From assembly GCA_024654485.1 (NCBI GenBank), contig JANLHO010000004.1, positions 1 through 39,118 on the forward strand: DNA of 39,118 bases. Direction: 5' to 3'. The notes under the pieces were generated by a model. That model was not told the origin of the DNA and searched no databases. It was given only the letters and a program-made list of their open reading frames with translations. Of the stretch, positions 6,591 to 16,439 are shown in pieces. The stretch is from Patescibacteria group bacterium. Its GTDB lineage: Bacteria > Patescibacteriota > Minisyncoccia > Phycocordibacterales > UBA2100. The position numbers were made by a program, and so were the translations under genes. Within the stretch, counting starts at the first letter, position 1; every line of letters begins with the position of its first letter.

Positions 6591-7493
6591 TTATTGGGTG
6601 TAGTGTTCCATCACAGCTTTGATGCCCGCTTGGTTCTTTGTCCGCTCGGTGTCAGTGTGGTTGGTGAGAAGCACGCTTATAGCGGGTACTCCCTTCTTGG
6701 CGAGCCAATTTACCATATCGCCCGTTATCTCGTAGAAGTCAAAATCCTCGTATGCCTTGTAGCCGGAGGAGGCGGCGTACGCATTCGTGAGCACGAGGGT
6801 TTCCGGTAGAACGCCGTTGTGACAGTTGGAGGCAAATACGCCGCCGGCGGCGCTATACCACACGACGACAGCGGCGAGATCGTGCGTTTCCACATAATTT
6901 TTTATAGCCCGACTCTCCGGTTCGGAAAAAGCTTCGCTTCCTCCGCTTACCGTTCTGCTCCGCCATTTTCCACTCTCCTGCCAGTCGCAATCAAAGTTGC
7001 GATTGAGGTCCACGTTGTTCGCGTTGAAACGGCCGGACACCTGTACCGACTGCGACGATGCGACATCCGCCGCCGCAAACTCAGCCGTGGAAGTGCCTGC
7101 GACTTTGTAGAGCCCGTCCGGATTCAAGACCGGTATCACTGTTACCTTTACGTTTGCGGGGATAACGCCCGGATCGCCTTCCATATAATCCATCATTTCG
7201 CGCGCGACTAGAGCCGTGTTCCACGAGTAGCCGCCGTGTATGCCTCCGACGAGGAGTACCTCGGTGTCGCCCGTACCATAGTGGTAGGCGATGATATCGC
7301 GCCCCTCCACCGAGGTGCCGATGACCGATTGTCCCATGTCTTCTTCCATCGCCGAGCTATCGCCATCTTCAAGCGGGGCTGTGCTTGAAGCAATGTCTTG
7401 GACATCCGCAGGGCCGGACATGTTCTGGATGAGGAAATATCCGCCAAAAGCGGCAATAATTAGGACAAGAAGCACGATGATGATATTTTTCAT
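6591..7493 (-). CDS. M14-family paralogue with a degenerate active site (likely non-catalytic)
   Basis: Collinear with the neighbouring paralogue and shares DLNRNF and SEPESRAI. It reads IHGGYSW (Glu->Ser), VWYSAAG (His->Tyr) and ISVLLT (Glu->Leu) at the three corresponding positions. Confidence 0.75.
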   Translation of the reverse strand: MKNIIIVLLVLIIAAFGGYFLIQNMSGPADVQDIASSTAPLEDGDSSAMEEDMGQSVIGTSVEGRDIIAYHYGTGDTEVLLVGGIHGGYSWNTALVAREMMDYMEGDPGVIPANVKVTVIPVLNPDGLYKVAGTSTAEFAAADVASSQSVQVSGRFNANNVDLNRNFDCDWQESGKWRSRTVSGGSEAFSEPESRAIKNYVETHDLAAVVVWYSAAGGVFASNCHNGVLPETLVLTNAYAASSGYKAYEDFDFYEITGDMVNWLAKKGVPAISVLLTNHTDTERTKNQAGIKAVMEHYTQ

Positions 7494-7539
7494 AGTGGCT
7501 GCATTATAGCAGAATGCTCCATATCTCCCCTACGGCTCC

Positions 7540-8472
7540 TCAATCAAAGATATCGGCGAGATACGCGTCTATGTCCCTTTGGTCCATTTCGTAAAAGTTC
7601 ATATTGTTGTTGTGCAGGTAGGTTGCTAGCTTCACACCTACGAATCGCCAGTGCCACGGCTCGTAGATGTAGAAACCGTTGTCTTTCGGGTAAGAAAGCA
7701 CGAAGCCGTATCTGTAAGCGTTCCCGAGCAGCCACTGGTAGGCCGCCGTGTCTCCGAAGCCGTCCAGTTGGCCGCCTAGTCCCGTGGTGATGAAGTCGGC
7801 CGTCGTCCCGAGCTGGTGCTCCGAATATCCTTGGTCCGCGGAGAACGAGTTGGCGGTACCGGCTCCGTAAACCACCGTGTACTGTGACTTTAGCGATTCC
7901 TGCTCGCCGAAAGATCGGTACGCGGACTTGACGTAGAGCGTGACCCCGCCCGCTTTTGCCGCATCCAGGAGGCTCTGCAGGAATGGCTGCGCTTCCGTGA
8001 GGAACTGCTCCGGCTTTGTCTCGTTGTATAGATACCCGGCTGGAATGCCGGCGAGATGCGCCGGTACATAATTCTCATTCATAAAATATACTTTGGAGTA
8101 TTTCTTGAGAAGCTCGGGATCTATTTGTGAAAGTTTCTCAAGAGTGCCGACCGTACCGGAAATAGTGCCTACCTTCTGCTCCACACCGCCTACTTTTGAG
8201 CTCACGGCATCTATGTTCTGTTGGGTGCTGGAAAGAGTGTCGGAAAGTCCGACCGTTTGCGAGCGCAGGTCCGTAATGTTGAGCGCAAGCTCGCTGGTGC
8301 TCTGCGAGAGCGCAGTGGTGGTGGACGCGAGCTCCACGGTCAGGGAGTTCACGTTTTCCGTCAGTGCGGAGATTTTTATGAACCCGTATACAAGAAGGCC
8401 GAATAGTACGAGGAAAACTACGGCGGCCGGGGTGATGCTCGGCCAAAGACTTTTGATATCCGGATGCTTCAC
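7540..8472 (-). CDS. D-alanyl-D-alanine carboxypeptidase family (M15B / VanY-like), membrane-anchored with a coiled-coil linker
   Basis: YVKSAYRSFGEQESL, SEHQLGTTADF and EPWHWRFVG match the VanY/M15B motif set. N-terminal TM plus a Ser/Thr-rich helical region. Confidence 0.8.
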   Translation of the reverse strand: MKHPDIKSLWPSITPAAVVFLVLFGLLVYGFIKISALTENVNSLTVELASTTTALSQSTSELALNITDLRSQTVGLSDTLSSTQQNIDAVSSKVGGVEQKVGTISGTVGTLEKLSQIDPELLKKYSKVYFMNENYVPAHLAGIPAGYLYNETKPEQFLTEAQPFLQSLLDAAKAGGVTLYVKSAYRSFGEQESLKSQYTVVYGAGTANSFSADQGYSEHQLGTTADFITTGLGGQLDGFGDTAAYQWLLGNAYRYGFVLSYPKDNGFYIYEPWHWRFVGVKLATYLHNNNMNFYEMDQRDIDAYLADIFD

Positions 8473-8545: not shown

Positions 8546-8779
8546 TTATTTCAATTCAAAAATGCCGGTGATGGCCGCAAGGCCGACGGCAAAAAGAAAA
8601 GCTCCCACTATTCGGGCTACCAGGTACGTGCGTTCGCTCGGTATATACTGCGCCCTCATTATCACTTTCTGGGTCCATATCTGCAGGCGAATCAGGAAAT
8701 CCGGCCGGACGACCGTAAGACCGCCGAGGATCATCAACATAAGTCCGATCAATAGGGGTTCCGTTTCCATATCTCCCAT
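8546..8779 (-). CDS. Small 2-TM membrane protein, unknown function
   Basis: Hydrophobic core EPLLIGLMLMILGGLTVV ... ARIVGAFLFAVGLAAITGIF. Start placed at the internal MGDMETE, because the upstream part of the 109-aa ORF is not protein-like. Confidence 0.5.
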   Translation of the reverse strand: MGDMETEPLLIGLMLMILGGLTVVRPDFLIRLQIWTQKVIMRAQYIPSERTYLVARIVGAFLFAVGLAAITGIFELK

Positions 8780-8962
8780 TCTACCATGCAGGCTTCTCAA
8801 GCATGCGCGCCAAACAGAAGCAGGAATATGGCGCTCAAAACCTGCTTCTTTTTGAATGGAAAGCGCGCCGAACACTAGGAAGAGAACTGCCCACAGCTTC
8901 GCAAAAAACAGAGTCGGCTCTGGTTCTATCTTTCCATTGTATCTAATCCCTACGCCTCTAGT

Positions 8963-9100: not shown

Positions 9101-9284
9101 ACCAAAATAGTATCACATTCCCCACCCCGGATTAAATGTGAAGGTTTAGCCTCCGCAAGTAATCCCTCTAGTCTCTAAACACCAGTGGCTAGTCGCCAGC
9201 TTGAATACCCGCGAAAAAGCGGGGCGACTCCCAAAAGCCCCAGAAAACCAAACAACCCGAACCACCACCGACTTTTTATATGCA

Positions 9285-9521
9285 TCAATCGCGCTTCTCA
9301 ACGACGATAGTGCACTTTGCTACAAGCGCAGCGATAGCTCCCGCGGCCGCTAGCAAAGGCGCTATGAGCGCCCCCACGGCGCCTACGGTCACCGGAAATT
9401 CTATGAGGGTCTTCCCCTCTTCGTTCTTGATGCTGATGCGCCGAGCATTGCCCTCCTTTATGACGCGCTTGATGAATGAAACGACATCATCCCCCGCCAC
9501 CTTGAATTCTTCCGTACTCAT
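9285..9521 (-). CDS. DUF4342-like small protein
   Basis: 78 aa. IKEGNARRISIKNEEGKTLIEFPVTVGAVGALIAPLLAAAGAIAALVAKCTIVVEK matches my recollection of the DUF4342 pattern. Confidence 0.65.
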   Translation of the reverse strand: MSTEEFKVAGDDVVSFIKRVIKEGNARRISIKNEEGKTLIEFPVTVGAVGALIAPLLAAAGAIAALVAKCTIVVEKRD

Positions 9522-9611
9522 AGCATTACTATACCAAATCCCCGCCGCCTCAAAAATACGCGCGCTTACGACAGGGGAAGGATTTTTAGAGCCTACCTTT
9601 TGTACATTGGG

Positions 9612-9670
9612 AAACCGGCTAGTTTTCGTCCATGAGGCGCCAGAGATAGAAGCAAGCCACCGTGCGGTGG
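9612..9670. repeat. 59-bp direct repeat, distal copy (orphan copy of the last 17 codons, stop and 8 nt of the glycosylase gene)
   Basis: 55 of 59 nt are identical to 10432-10490. On the minus strand it still reads HRTVACFYLWRLMDEN*, but an in-frame TAG lies immediately upstream. Confidence 0.9.
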
Positions 9671-9708
9671 TAACCGGCGGGCGAACGCTAGTGGGAATCT
9701 TTTTTGCT

Positions 9709-10401
9709 CTAACGGAACCATGCTAGTTTTGATCGAGAAACCTCAACAATCGATTTCTCGCTCAAATCGTAGAGTACGATTTTTCCCGTAGAGGCATCAT
9801 AGAGCATATTATGCGGCCCCATGTCTTCGAACGTGGAAAGTGCTGCCTCTATCTTCCTTGCTTTTGAGTCCAACTCTACATACTCGGGATGCTCTTGGGT
9901 TCCATGATTTTCTTCTATTTGCTCTAGGCGCTTAGATACGGTCGGCAGATTTATCCACCTGCTGACAAAATAACTCCTTCCTGTACCTTGATATCCGAGC
10001 AACGGCTCTACTACATCAACCCCTGGGACGTCCTCCAGAAGGTCTTTAGCCCTTAGCGTACTCGCGTATTCGTCAGTACCCTTTGCAGTTACACCAGACA
10101 GGACTCTATCTTTCTCTATCTTGACTAAAAACGAGGAGTCGTTCGTTGATACTTTGAGAACGTGACGCCTATGATTTTCACCAGAACGCCATCCTTTTAT
10201 CAGATTAATTGTGCCGGACTCTGATATAAATGACGGATGCTCTGCCAATTGTTGCCATGTCATTGAATCCAGCTGCTTCAGTACATCTTTCAGTGCTCTC
10301 ACTGTTTCCGGATTAGCCTTCAACCAAGCCCTAAAGTCCTCGTTGTATACCAAGCTTCGTGTATCCGTACTCTTTATCCGCTCAATCATAGAATCCGTCA
10401 C
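9709..10401 (-). CDS. Small protein-kinase-like-fold protein (RIO/Kdo/APH-like), function unknown
   Basis: Visibly AT-richer than its flanks. FLVKIEK (beta3-Lys-like), EDMGPHNMLYD (D-x4-N catalytic loop) and KIVLYDLSE (DFG-equivalent Asp). The track start is GTG; an ATG at 10389 with AAGGTGA 8 nt upstream is an alternative start. Confidence 0.6.
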   Translation of the reverse strand: MTDSMIERIKSTDTRSLVYNEDFRAWLKANPETVRALKDVLKQLDSMTWQQLAEHPSFISESGTINLIKGWRSGENHRRHVLKVSTNDSSFLVKIEKDRVLSGVTAKGTDEYASTLRAKDLLEDVPGVDVVEPLLGYQGTGRSYFVSRWINLPTVSKRLEQIEENHGTQEHPEYVELDSKARKIEAALSTFEDMGPHNMLYDASTGKIVLYDLSEKSIVEVSRSKLAWFR

Positions 10402-10431
10402 CTTATCATCTCACAAATTTTCGGGCTTAGT

Positions 10432-10490
10432 AAATCGGCTAGTTTTCGTCCATGAGGCGCCAGAGGTAGAAGCAGGCGACCGTGCGGTGG
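10432..10490. repeat. 59-bp direct repeat, proximal copy (genuine 3' end of the glycosylase gene)
   Basis: See 9612-9670. Covers the last 17 codons, the stop (10439-10441) and 8 nt beyond it on the 3' side (lower coordinates). Confidence 0.9.
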
Positions 10491-11062
10491 CCCCGCCAGC
10501 CCTTGGCTAGGAGGTGCATTTGCTCTGTGGTCGGGAGGGTTTTCAGGCCGAAGAGCTTTTTGAAGCCTTTTTGGATGCCGAGGTCGCCGGTGGGCAGGAT
10601 GTCGGGGCGGCCGAGGGTAAACATCATAAACATATGCGCAGTCCACTCCCCTATCCCTTTCACCGCCGTCACGTGGGCAATGACTTCCTCATCCGTCATC
10701 TTGGGAAATTTTTTCGTGTCTATCGTGCCGTCGGTGCATTTCTGCGCGAGGTCTTTGAGATAGGCGGACTTTTGCGCCGAGATGCCCGCGCTGCGCAGCT
10801 TCGCGGTGCGTATCTTCAAAACGTCCTCCGGCGTCGGAAACCTTTTACCCGGGAAAAGCGCGATGAATCTCCGTAGGATGGTCTCGGCCGCCTTTCCAGA
10901 GAGCTGCTGGAAGATGATGGTTCGTGCAAGCGATTGGAAAGCGCTCCTTGAGTGCCTCCGTCGGTGTGTGATGGCTCCATGCTTCTTTATGAAAGCACCC
11001 AAATGCGGATCGCGTGCGAGGCGGCGCGCCGATAGCTCAAGATTTTTTCGCTTTGCAGCCAT
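10439..11062 (-). CDS. alkA: DNA-3-methyladenine glycosylase II family (HhH-GPD)
   Basis: 207 aa. IIFQQLSGKAAETI, helix-hairpin-helix VKGIGEWTAHMFMMF and LPTGDLGIQKG with the catalytic Asp context. Confidence 0.8.
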   Translation of the reverse strand: MAAKRKNLELSARRLARDPHLGAFIKKHGAITHRRRHSRSAFQSLARTIIFQQLSGKAAETILRRFIALFPGKRFPTPEDVLKIRTAKLRSAGISAQKSAYLKDLAQKCTDGTIDTKKFPKMTDEEVIAHVTAVKGIGEWTAHMFMMFTLGRPDILPTGDLGIQKGFKKLFGLKTLPTTEQMHLLAKGWRGHRTVACFYLWRLMDEN

Positions 11063-14560: not shown

Positions 14561-16357
14561 TCACTGACGTCTGGCACGCGTTCTGTCTATATCCGTAAGT
14601 TGCTGCTTACGCAAACGCACGGATTTCGGCGTTATTTCAAGATATTCGTCCTCGGCCATGACCTCCAGCCCGCGCTCTATGGTGAGCTCAAACGGCGGCA
14701 CCAGCTGTATGGCGTCGTCAGAGGACTTGGAGCGCATGTTGGTAAGCTGCTTGCCTTTGGACGGGTTGACGGTCATCTCCTCGCCCTTTGACGTGTTGCC
14801 CATGACCTGTCCTTCGTATACTTCCGACCCCGGACCGATGTAAAGGACGCCTCGCTCCTGCAGATTCCAGAGCGCATAGCCGAGAGCTTTGCCGGACACC
14901 ATGGATATCATGGAGCCCACCTGCTTTTTCTTTATCTCGCCGGCGTGATCCCTGAATCCGATGGTGCGCGAAGAAATTATACCCTCGCCCTTCGTATCAA
15001 GTACGAACTGATTGCGATAGCCCAAGAGGCCCCGGGTCGGGCCTTCAAATATGAGGCGCACCTGGTTCTCGTGAACCTTCATGTCCTTAATTATGAACTT
15101 CCGCGTCCCGAGGCGCTCTATGATGGGACCCTGATATTCCGATGGCGTGTCTATCACGACCTCTTCATATGGTTCCAGCTTCTTGCCATTCTCCTCGCGG
15201 AAAATGACCTGCGGCTGCGATACCTGCACCTCATACCCCTCGCGGCGCATGTTCTCCAGAAGAATCGCGATATGCAGCTCGCCTCGGCCGGAAACCTTGA
15301 AGGTGTCGCCTTCCGAGAAGTCCACACGCAGACCTACATTTACCTCAAGCTCGCGCTCAAGCCTGTCGCGTATCTGGCGCGATGTGACATATGTGCCCTC
15401 GCGCCCCGAGAACGGGGAACTGTTTACGAGAAAGTTGAGAGTTATCGTCGGGTCATCCACGTGGATGGAAGGCAGCGCATCCACATCGGCATTTGTGGCT
15501 ATAGTCTCTCCGATAAATATATCGGGCAGTCCCGCCACCATCACAATGTCTCCGGCATCCGCCGACGCGGCGTCTACGCGCTTCAGGCCATGAAAGGTGA
15601 AGAGCTTGGTGAGCTTGCCGTTTCGCGTCTCTCCGTTTGCTCCTTTCACGAAGACGCTATCTCCAGACTTTAAAACACCATCATAGACGCGCGCTATCGC
15701 CAGGCGTCCGAGGAAATTGTCGTATGCCAGATTGAAAGGCTGCGCACGCGCCGGCAGGGCGAGTGCTTCTTTTGAGGCGGCGGCCGGCACTCGCTCCAGA
15801 ATGGTGTCAAGAAGCGGCGTTAGGTCGGCTCCGGCCGGCGTATCGTCGGAAAGTTTCAGTTTCGCTATGCCCTGCTTGCCTATCGTGTAGACGACGGGGA
15901 AATCCGCCTGTTCGTCCGTGGCACCAAGCTCCAGAAAAAGCTCCAGCACTTGCTCCTCGCATTTGTGCGGATCGGCCGCCGGTTTATCTATCTTGTTGAT
16001 TACCACTATCGGTTTGAGGCCGAGCTCAAGCGATTTTTTCAAAACGAAGCGCGTTTGCGGCATAGGACCTTCCTGCGCGTCTACCACAAGAAGAACGCTG
16101 TCTATGGAGCGCAGAACGCGCTCCACTTCGCTGCCGAAATCGGCGTGACCGGGCGTATCTACGATATTTATTTTTGTATCCTTGTATGAGACAGCCGCGT
16201 TCTTGGAATAAATCGTTATGCCGCGTTCCAACTCAAGCGCGTTGGAGTCCATGGATACGCCCTCTTCAGCGGCCCCAGTCTGACGCAGCAGTGCATCCGT
16301 CAAGGTCGTTTTCCCATGATCGACATGGGCTATGATTGCTATATTCCTAATTTCCAT
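14561..16357 (-). CDS. typA: Translational GTPase TypA/BipA
   Basis: [27 protein letters not shown] and NKIDK, with EF-G-like domains throughout. Start placed at ATG 16357 rather than the TTG at 16384 used by the track. Confidence 0.93.
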
Positions 16358-16439
16358 AATGGTCAACGCCTGCCCCGTAGCCAACGCGTAGCGTTGTACT
16401 ATCGGGGTGCGCGATAATAGCTATGTTGCGGATTTCCAT
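16347..16439 (-). other. Relic or upstream mini-ORF that re-encodes the TypA N-terminus
   Basis: ATG at 16439 reads [30 protein letters not shown]. Its stop lies 11 nt inside typA, in another frame. See findings. Confidence 0.6.

Follow-up and report, generated by a model that had tools for sequence, protein, structure and literature searches.

A one-gene insertion that duplicates the 3' end of a DNA glycosylase gene in a Patescibacteria genome

The prophage e14 and phage 21 integrate into the icd gene of Escherichia coli and leave behind an orphaned gene end, icdC (Hill et al. 1989, as outlined in PMC13626634). This is the closest described architecture to that of the locus treated here, an 820-bp insertion of a single gene behind an HhH-GPD DNA glycosylase gene in a groundwater bacterium of the Patescibacteria (candidate phyla radiation, CPR). 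The locus lies on contig JANLHO010000004.1 in a stretch of 39,118 nt, the window, which belongs to a metagenome-assembled genome (MAG) of 60 contigs and 819,577 bp. In both cases the incoming DNA brings a substitute 3' end for a protein-coding gene, and the original end survives beyond the insertion as a pseudogene fragment. Most differences between the two ends are synonymous or conservative, and excision leaves a chimeric gene. The e14 prophage, however, spans 15 kb, encodes an integrase of its own and has a defined att core, whereas the unit measures 820 bp, carries one kinase-like gene and no recombinase, and shows no sign of a fixed crossover site. Of the features that mark an e14-type insertion, direct repeats of a gene end and an unoccupied site are present; an element integrase and recurrence in independent genomes were not found.

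Two other kinds of element are similar in size or content. Cis-mobilisable elements (CIMEs), which are flanked by att sites, and integrative mobile elements exploiting XerC/D (IMEX) both lack an integrase and are moved in trans. The unit resembles them in being small, recombinase-less and bounded by direct repeats, and the only tyrosine recombinase of the genome is of the Xer type. It differs from them in that the repeat is the end of a protein-coding gene, not dif or a known resident att site, and in that there is no related autonomous element. Integron gene cassettes are shorter than 1 kb, have a single open reading frame (ORF) and an imperfect palindrome, attC, and are associated with the integrase IntI and the site attI. 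The unit falls in the same size range, consists of one ORF with little sequence around it and is probably co-transcribed from upstream, but it has no attC-type palindrome, IntI or attI, and its bounding repeat copies the end of the neighbouring gene.

Campbell-type insertion-duplication and homology-facilitated illegitimate recombination (HFIR) have been described in naturally transformable bacteria (de Vries & Wackernagel 2002; Prudhomme et al. 2002; both as presented in PMC2884548). The same paper summarises the literature on small variable segments and HFIR in competent bacteria, and the laboratory events that it describes come from Acinetobacter, Pseudomonas stutzeri and Streptococcus, with longer anchors. 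The locus shares with these events foreign DNA trapped beside a homologous anchor and a duplicated anchor, possibly with one homologous and one illegitimate boundary. RecA and DNA uptake suffice for such events, and both are encoded here. Unlike the laboratory cases, the event is deduced from a natural CPR genome and the duplicated segment is 64 nt long.

CPR bacteria have tiny genomes with few recognisable mobile elements, so the route by which they gain accessory genes is poorly understood. The insertion is of a known kind, either an insertion-duplication or a gene-end-replacing insertion. It forms a clean pair of filled and empty site in which a single gene has been added without an integrase, in a gene that is itself a recombination mosaic.

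The inserted unit and its empty site

The window carries a recent insertion of one gene, and the empty site is verified in a related strain. The whole region is encoded on the minus strand in the order Gmad2, HhH-GPD glycosylase, inserted (cargo) gene, orphan repeat copy, DUF4342, a 45-aa ORF, DUF6199 and VanY (Table 1). A repeat search found two copies of a 64-nt segment spaced by 820 nt and identical at 58/64 positions (91%). When the 819,577-bp genome was compared with itself by blastn, 9612-9670 and 10432-10490 matched at 55/59 positions (E=3e-17), and no third copy appeared. Each copy encodes HRTVACFYLWRLMDEN*. Copy B contains the last 16 codons and the stop codon of the glycosylase gene, and the orphan copy A has an in-frame stop seven codons upstream and no usable start codon.

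Table 1. Features of the insertion locus and related gene-end duplications; positions are those of the window unless another contig is named
Feature	Position	Strand	Basis or remark
Gmad2-domain protein	12000-11119	minus	
HhH-GPD DNA glycosylase gene (AlkA / 3-methyladenine glycosylase II-like), intact, 207 aa	10439..11062	minus	Pfam PF00730, E=2e-19
Repeat copy B, glycosylase end in use (HRTVACFYLWRLMDEN*) plus 12 nt, leads into cargo	10427..10490	minus	Repeat search, genome self-blastn, translation
Cargo gene, 226 aa from ATG (230 aa from GTG at 10401)	9709..10389	minus	ORF list, database record, structure model
38-nt spacer from cargo stop codon to orphan copy; 3' edge (9671/9670) is the sharp junction	9671..9708	minus	Copy-versus-copy similarity at chance beyond (7/30)
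Repeat copy A, orphaned glycosylase 3' end	9607..9670	minus	Repeat search, translation, 98/100 match to L084
Native sequence behind the glycosylase gene, adjoining the orphan copy, common to L084	9559..9606	minus	blastn and alignment against L084
Inserted unit, 820 bp (one repeat copy, cargo and spacer); register within the repeat arbitrary	9671..10490	minus	Repeat spacing 820; absent from L084
DUF4342 gene, downstream, outside the insertion	9285..9521	minus	Pfam PF14242, E=2e-27
DUF6199, single gene in the window	8546-8875		
Orphan copy of first 11 typA codons, 82 nt upstream of the real start	16325-16439	minus	8/8 differing codons synonymous; single start in L083
Orphan tail of sigma-like gene	C2 13391-13562		22 codons, 16 differ, 15 synonymous; terminator-like hairpin between copies
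Orphan tail	C60 5572-5687		9 codons, 6 differ, all synonymous; hairpin between copies
Unit of ~800 nt flanked by 114-nt repeats (86%)	C55 987-1893		
Palindromic motif TATTCTAGTATTTTGCAAAATACTAGAATA and variants	L084 2228-2248; L004 4112-4148, 4405-4441, 4949-4985; L001 1878-1909, 2172-2203		

The 90%-identity cluster of the glycosylase protein has two further members, both from MAGs at NCBI, which led to the contigs L083 (11.3 kb, GCA_030688285.1) and L084 (2.4 kb, GCA_034374585.1). By blastn, L084 matches window positions 12604-10432 at 88.6%, covering Gmad2 and the glycosylase gene, and its positions 2116-2227 then continue into window positions 9670-9559 at 97.3%, with a single copy of the repeat. 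The orphan copy A and its flank agree with the gene end and flank of L084 at 98/100 positions. Copy B agrees with the single L084 copy at 54/55 positions and diverges into the leader of the cargo gene after TAGCCG. These alignments identify the orphan copy and the next ~60 nt as the native gene end and flank, and the 820 bp as extra sequence in the window.

A preliminary description of the window, made from its letters and ORFs, had noted the 55/59 direct repeats, the shared glycosylase end with three synonymous differences and the single AT-richer ORF between the copies, and had read them as a single-gene insertion that regenerates the glycosylase 3' end. Self-blastn, translation and composition agree with these observations, and the reading stands on the empty site in L084, the foreign composition of the cargo and its non-detection across the genus. 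The repeat was rightly said to continue past the stop codon, although by 7 nt and not by 8. The empty site had been expected to show the glycosylase gene followed directly by DUF4342, which was not seen: L084 leaves the match to the window 60 nt past the stop codon, before DUF4342 is reached. The DUF4342 gene is itself strain-variable, being found at this position in neither L083 nor L084 and having a homologue in 3/24 same-genus genomes.

The cargo is compositionally foreign. The GC content of its ORF is 0.455, whereas the genome averages 0.562 (z = -3.2; a value this low occurs in 0.9% of 693-nt windows), and its GC3 is 0.46 compared with 0.72 in the glycosylase gene. This composition bears on the possibility that the arrangement is old and that L084 lost the cargo by recombination between the repeats, with no recent insertion in the lineage of the window. 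Such a deletion would leave exactly the single copy and flank seen in L084, and two 64-nt repeats with a 30-nt identical core could delete the cassette again. However, both the GC and the GC3 of the cargo are far from the genome values, and searches of L083 and of 115 other genomes of the genus did not find the cargo. Nor is there a member of at least 90% identity among 15 billion proteins beyond the genome's own. A loss in L084 is considered very unlikely, and it would alter the polarity only, as an earlier repeat-flanked insertion would still be required.

That the locus was produced by an assembly joining two strains through shared sequence is hardly credible. The genome is a 60-contig MAG in which several contigs end in palindromic, artefact-like repeats. 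However, the copies differ at 6/64 positions and the junction between cargo and orphan copy (9671/9670) has no sequence in common with the other junction, so that a k-mer collapse cannot create the locus. The ORFs are intact on both sides, and the independently assembled L084 confirms the flank behind the orphan copy.

On these comparisons, the position behind the glycosylase gene is a strain-variable hotspot. Upstream, L083 has the same gene order as the window (pseudouridine synthase, a 288-aa gene, Gmad2 and glycosylase), and downstream it has a 185-aa gene, a truncated DUF6199 copy, a TaqI-like restriction-modification (R-M) pair and a 49-aa ORF before it rejoins the window at DUF6199-VanY with 94.6% identity. 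Comparison of the window, L083 and L084 thus gives three contents behind the glycosylase gene in three close strains. Among species-representative genomes of the same genus (24-116), homologues of the glycosylase, DUF4342 and Gmad2 reach at most 61% identity in amino acids and 74% in nucleotides, with no synteny.

The glycosylase gene itself is a patchwork of strain alleles with one breakpoint at the repeat boundary, as judged from the way identity switches among the three strains. In a sliding comparison, L083 and L084 are 100% identical over ~1.4 kb (equivalent to window 12277-10853; Gmad2 and the start of the glycosylase gene) and 76-94% identical thereafter. The window is 98-100% identical to L083 over ~100 nt just upstream of the repeat and turns L084-like at the repeat, with 23/30 matches to L084 upstream and 54/55 inside.

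Two side observations concern this gene. The drop in identity between L083 and L084 is a clear recombination breakpoint inside it. Metagenomic glycosylases with 65-76% identity number in the thousands, the best same-genus species representative has 61%, and the history of the gene may not follow the species tree.

Route of insertion

The two copies carry most of the information on how the unit arrived. Their core is identical at 52/55 positions, with a longest identical run of 30 nt. The three differences in the coding part (GTC/GTG, GCC/GCT, TAC/TAT) are all synonymous, as against 19% expected for random changes, and the divergence looks like that between alleles of a functional gene, albeit in a small sample. 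The upstream edge of the repeat is sharp and lies inside coding sequence, with similarity at chance directly beyond it (7/30). The downstream edge fades after the stop codon: similarity is 6/9, then 10/18 past the shared TAGCCG (~18 nt of weak similarity) and then at chance (8/27).

In our judgement there is a somewhat better than even chance that the unit arose as an insertion-duplication, in which homologous recombination took place with incoming DNA bearing a diverged allele of the gene end. Both the synonymous-only divergence and the mosaic gene point in this direction. DNA from a related strain would have entered the cell with the foreign, low-GC, kinase-like gene already placed just behind its glycosylase gene, and the incoming allelic copy of the last ~55 nt would have paired with the resident gene. 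The exchange could then have been a single, Campbell-type crossover of a circularised fragment. Alternatively, a homologous crossover on the side of the gene could have been combined with an illegitimate joint on the other side, as in HFIR. Either route would give an intact glycosylase gene with one copy, followed by the cargo and by a dead orphan copy on the native flank, and the two appear not to be separable here. No dedicated recombinase would be involved. The sharp edge would be the closure point of the circular fragment or the illegitimate joint, and the fading edge the end of the homology between donor and recipient. Such an asymmetry would be expected if the incoming DNA had its own glycosylase end. 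From these features we infer both the arrangement in the donor and the route of recombination.

The necessary machinery is present. RecA, ComEC and DprA are encoded in the genome, which makes DNA uptake and recombination possible, and an identity of ~30 nt is close to the threshold reported for RecA-dependent recombination in E. coli (PMC2884548). Domain searches found no recombinase in the 820-bp unit or in the window, and there was no PF00589 or PF00239 match on the contig of the window, in agreement with the preliminary description, which had seen no integrase in the unit. The whole genome has one XerC/D-type tyrosine recombinase (contig C56) and one short serine-recombinase fragment (contig C9), and integron-integrase models match the Xer-type gene weakly, below their cut-offs. 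On contig C9 the first ~15 codons of a serine recombinase (MHYFLYARKSTDVE...) also occur twice (89%), at 8557-8602 and 9259-9304 (locus L082), 702 nt apart, and only a 174-aa resolvase-like fragment is open.

Three established element types were rejected. A transposon or insertion sequence does not fit, as neither terminal inverted repeats at the ends of the unit nor a transposase domain within it were found and the repeat is 64 nt long and diverged. An integron gene cassette was dismissed because the bounding repeat is a gene end and the integron-integrase matches lie below the cut-off. A casposon-like reading lacks its defining parts.

Two comparable insertions, which emerged when the genome was searched for direct repeats and duplicated terminal peptides and when L083 was compared with the window, help to weigh the remaining explanations. 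On contig C3 (3964-6168, locus L078) mltG/yceG and mnmA are separated by a 2.06-kb insertion with one 613-aa ORF. Direct repeats of 71-74 nt (69/71 identical) bound this insertion and contain the upstream region and the first 20 nt of mnmA. The empty site is present in a relative (contig L100), where mltG adjoins mnmA with one copy of the segment. In other genomes (L101-L103) the 613-aa gene adjoins mnmA, as the recombination model predicts for a donor. In L083, 198-nt direct repeats (7450-7647 and 10412-10609, 87%) duplicate the small DUF6199 gene and flank the R-M pair; this cargo consists of a TaqI-like restriction enzyme, a methyltransferase fused to LexA/S24 domains and the 49-aa ORF. The upstream DUF6199 copy is 5'-truncated at a sharp boundary in the coding sequence and the other boundary fades after the stop codon. 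Because the truncated copy lies upstream, a simple crossover at DUF6199 does not explain the case. One boundary of the mnmA insertion is likewise sharp inside coding sequence and the other fades, so that the asymmetry seen at the glycosylase gene recurs at both insertions.

A different origin, regarded as unlikely, is an integrase-less integrative cassette with the architecture of e14 in icd and the mobility of a CIME or IMEX. Its att site would mimic the glycosylase 3' end, and a recombinase would act in trans, either the resident Xer-type enzyme or one from another element. The architecture fits elements that replace gene ends: the gene is made whole by the copy on the element side, and the resident end has been moved away. 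A 14-nt near-palindrome, CCACCGCACGGTGG, lies exactly at the sharp repeat boundary, and a second CCGATTTCCCAA motif in L084, 133 nt downstream of the first (start to start) and noticed post hoc, could be a footprint. However, there is no recombinase in the 820 bp or the window and only the XerC/D-type enzyme and the serine fragment in the genome. No third repeat copy was found, and so nothing dif-like resembling the repeat was seen in the genome. The other repeat-flanked insertions of the genome and L083 use unrelated repeats of 55-198 nt that match their own local gene end, and no common core is visible among those examined. Relatives of the cargo occur in other contexts without the repeat.

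The glycosylase end does not behave as a recurrent docking site either: degenerate patterns for it gave 0 matches elsewhere in two scans of public metagenome contigs and one of genome contigs, and 0/25 other glycosylase loci have a second copy of their own 3' end. The att-like framing of the preliminary description is left with no positive evidence, given the absence of an integrase in or near the unit, the failure to find the repeat elsewhere in the genome or the public collections and the occurrence of cargo relatives in other places without it. Its suggestion of searching for both parts elsewhere succeeded for the cargo, which has homologues in another gene context, and failed for the repeat, which was found in no other place in the genome or the public collections. 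Of the three origins that it had offered (a decayed remnant, a cassette moved in trans and recombination with a diverged allele), the last agrees best with the synonymous-only differences, the asymmetric edges, the mosaic gene and the presence of RecA, ComEC and DprA. The CCGRTTTMCYAA motif occurs in this genome only at the two copies and twice in L084. As a shared att-like core it was given no weight, since the second L084 copy was spotted post hoc.

A duplication in place is less probable than a cassette moved in trans. By this account foreign DNA was taken in at a staggered break, or through a transposition-like event or a replication template switch, ~55-64 nt of the resident gene end were duplicated and the copies diverged in situ. 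The timing is possible because the divergence of the repeats (52/55 in the core; 58/64 in full) is below that of the strains (88.6% identity), and the mnmA copies, at 69/71, share differences from the single copy of the relative. On the other side, the coding differences at the glycosylase gene are all synonymous although an orphan should drift freely, similarity fades past the stop codon instead of being sharp at both ends, and there are no terminal inverted repeats and no transposase. Other orphan ends are also heavily recoded and still give the same peptide: in five pairs, 33/35 differing codons are synonymous, a count that is biased because three of the five pairs were found by peptide identity. 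As far as these codons can tell, recoding of displaced ends cannot come from the neutral decay of a local duplicate.

Several points weigh against recombination with a diverged allele, the reading preferred here. A donor with the glycosylase gene followed by the cargo was not found in any collection searched, and with a homology arm of only 64 nt, in which the longest identical run is 30 nt, integration by RecA would be inefficient. The product looks exactly like that of an e14-type integration, so that a site-specific recombinase working in trans could have left the same structure. The mnmA repeat copies resemble each other (69/71) more than they resemble the copy of the relative, which fits a duplication in situ too. 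Three synonymous differences are few, with p ~0.03 if only one copy was constrained. The polarity is deduced, as the same two sequences would result whether the window gained the unit or L084 lost it precisely, and the genome is a MAG. If the preferred reading is correct, the locus speaks for gene gain in CPR bacteria through ordinary homologous recombination with DNA that the cell has taken up, and it explains one class of the orphan gene ends that recur in their genomes.

The inserted gene and its surroundings

The single ORF between the repeat copies extends over 9709-10401 when read from a GTG. The true start is likely the ATG at 10389, which gives a protein of 226 aa and matches the database record. 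An AAGGTGA box precedes this ATG by 8 nt and the gene begins 49 nt past the glycosylase stop codon, so that the cargo is probably co-transcribed with the glycosylase gene. A scan of the locus for promoters and terminators gave background levels.

Searches of Pfam, NCBIfam and PADLOC gave no match for the protein. Relaxing the threshold to E<=10 brought up no family in Pfam or NCBIfam, and a sequence search of PDB was also negative. The nearest homologues form only three clusters among 5.8 billion, with 51-53% identity, all from groundwater metagenomes. Their context is always an ABC-F gene, the cargo homologue and a DUF1905 gene, without the repeat, and no DUF1905 homologue was found in the present genome. 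A search of public contigs for related loci with the cargo alignment gave none. An exhaustive profile search of 1.8 billion proteins gave a family of 295 representative clusters with lengths of 200-240 aa. The cargo thus belongs to a family of ~300 representative clusters without a name or Pfam model, and the family could receive a model of its own. In contigs that hold cargo homologues, small ArsR/HTH_5 genes are flanked by the palindromic motif TATTCTAGTATTTTGCAAAATACTAGAATA and its variants, and half of this motif is located exactly where the match of L084 to the window ends.

An AlphaFold model built from 76 sequences has a pLDDT of 91.8 and a pTM of 0.89 and supersedes an earlier, poor model from four sequences (pLDDT 62.6). 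Foldseek searches of PDB with this model gave 543 matches at E<=1e-3, and all 50 of the 50 listed are protein kinases, among them BubR1, PknB/Stk1, NEK and RIO1, with TM scores of 0.30-0.43. Across the 76 family members K94, E111, N198 and D212 do not vary, and the four closest members also share D193, which lies five residues ahead of N198. K94, E111, D193-N198 and D212 make up the Lys, Glu, D-x4-N and Asp signature of active kinases.

With the RIO kinases and the Hanks-type PknB, the protein would share a bilobal kinase fold, the lysine of beta3, the glutamate of alphaC, a D-x4-N loop and the metal-binding aspartate. It differs from these kinases in having no sequence match to Pkinase, RIO, APH or any Pfam or NCBIfam model, in TM scores that reach only 0.30-0.43, and in an N-terminal helical extension and a reduced C-lobe. 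The predicted fold and these residues suggest that the cargo is a minimal kinase-like enzyme and probably active.

The glycosylase whose end is duplicated has a weak NCBIfam match to DNA-3-methyladenine glycosylase 2 and nothing else in that database. Its relatives of at least 90% identity, P0274 and P0275, carry the NCBI name DNA-3-methyladenine glycosylase.

Other gene-end duplications in the genome and its relatives

Gene ends are also duplicated without any cargo. Such duplicates, with periods of 82-106 nt, occur at typA in the window, at a sigma-like gene on contig C2 and at a gene on contig C60. The orphan tails on C2, C60 and C55 sit just downstream of the tail in use. A repeat pair on contig C41 was discarded as an insertion because the flanked gene is also present in the relative L104, and several inverted "copies" turned out to be palindromes at contig ends.

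A more general interpretation of these cases is tentative, and we regard it as doubtful. Small cassettes may pass between CPR bacteria by an "address-label" route that needs no recombinase. Each cassette would bring along the end of a conserved host gene in recoded form, which would act as the homology arm when RecA integrates or excises the cassette in different strains. If this were true, gene ends would be standard docking sites for accessory genes. The series in this genome would then comprise the glycosylase/kinase cassette, the mnmA/613-aa cassette, the ~800-nt unit on C55 and the cargo-less 82-106-nt relics at typA and on C2 and C60. The significance of the glycosylase locus would rise if recurrent gene-end duplications prove to be a general recombinase-free route for cassettes.

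The 613-aa protein encoded beside mnmA has no Pfam, PADLOC or PDB sequence match, and its 90%-identity cluster contains 91 sequences, some of them labelled Kaiserbacteria. The last 138 nt of its gene (L078 5792-5929) match L101 3723-3586 in inverted orientation at 82%, beside a bAvd gene, and the same is seen in L102 and L103. This match looks like the variable and template repeat (VR/TR) pair of a diversity-generating retroelement, of which the 613-aa protein would be the target. No Avd gene was seen adjoining the 613-aa gene in the present genome.

Two further kinds of repeat are scattered over the contigs. Long perfect palindromes lie inside or at the ends of C11, C26, C29, C37, C38 and C52, and some of them look like assembly artefacts. 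Dispersed repeat families of ~140 nt and ~95 nt are present in 8-18 copies, for example at C27 3848-3985, C36 12184-12322 and C18 9169-9278.

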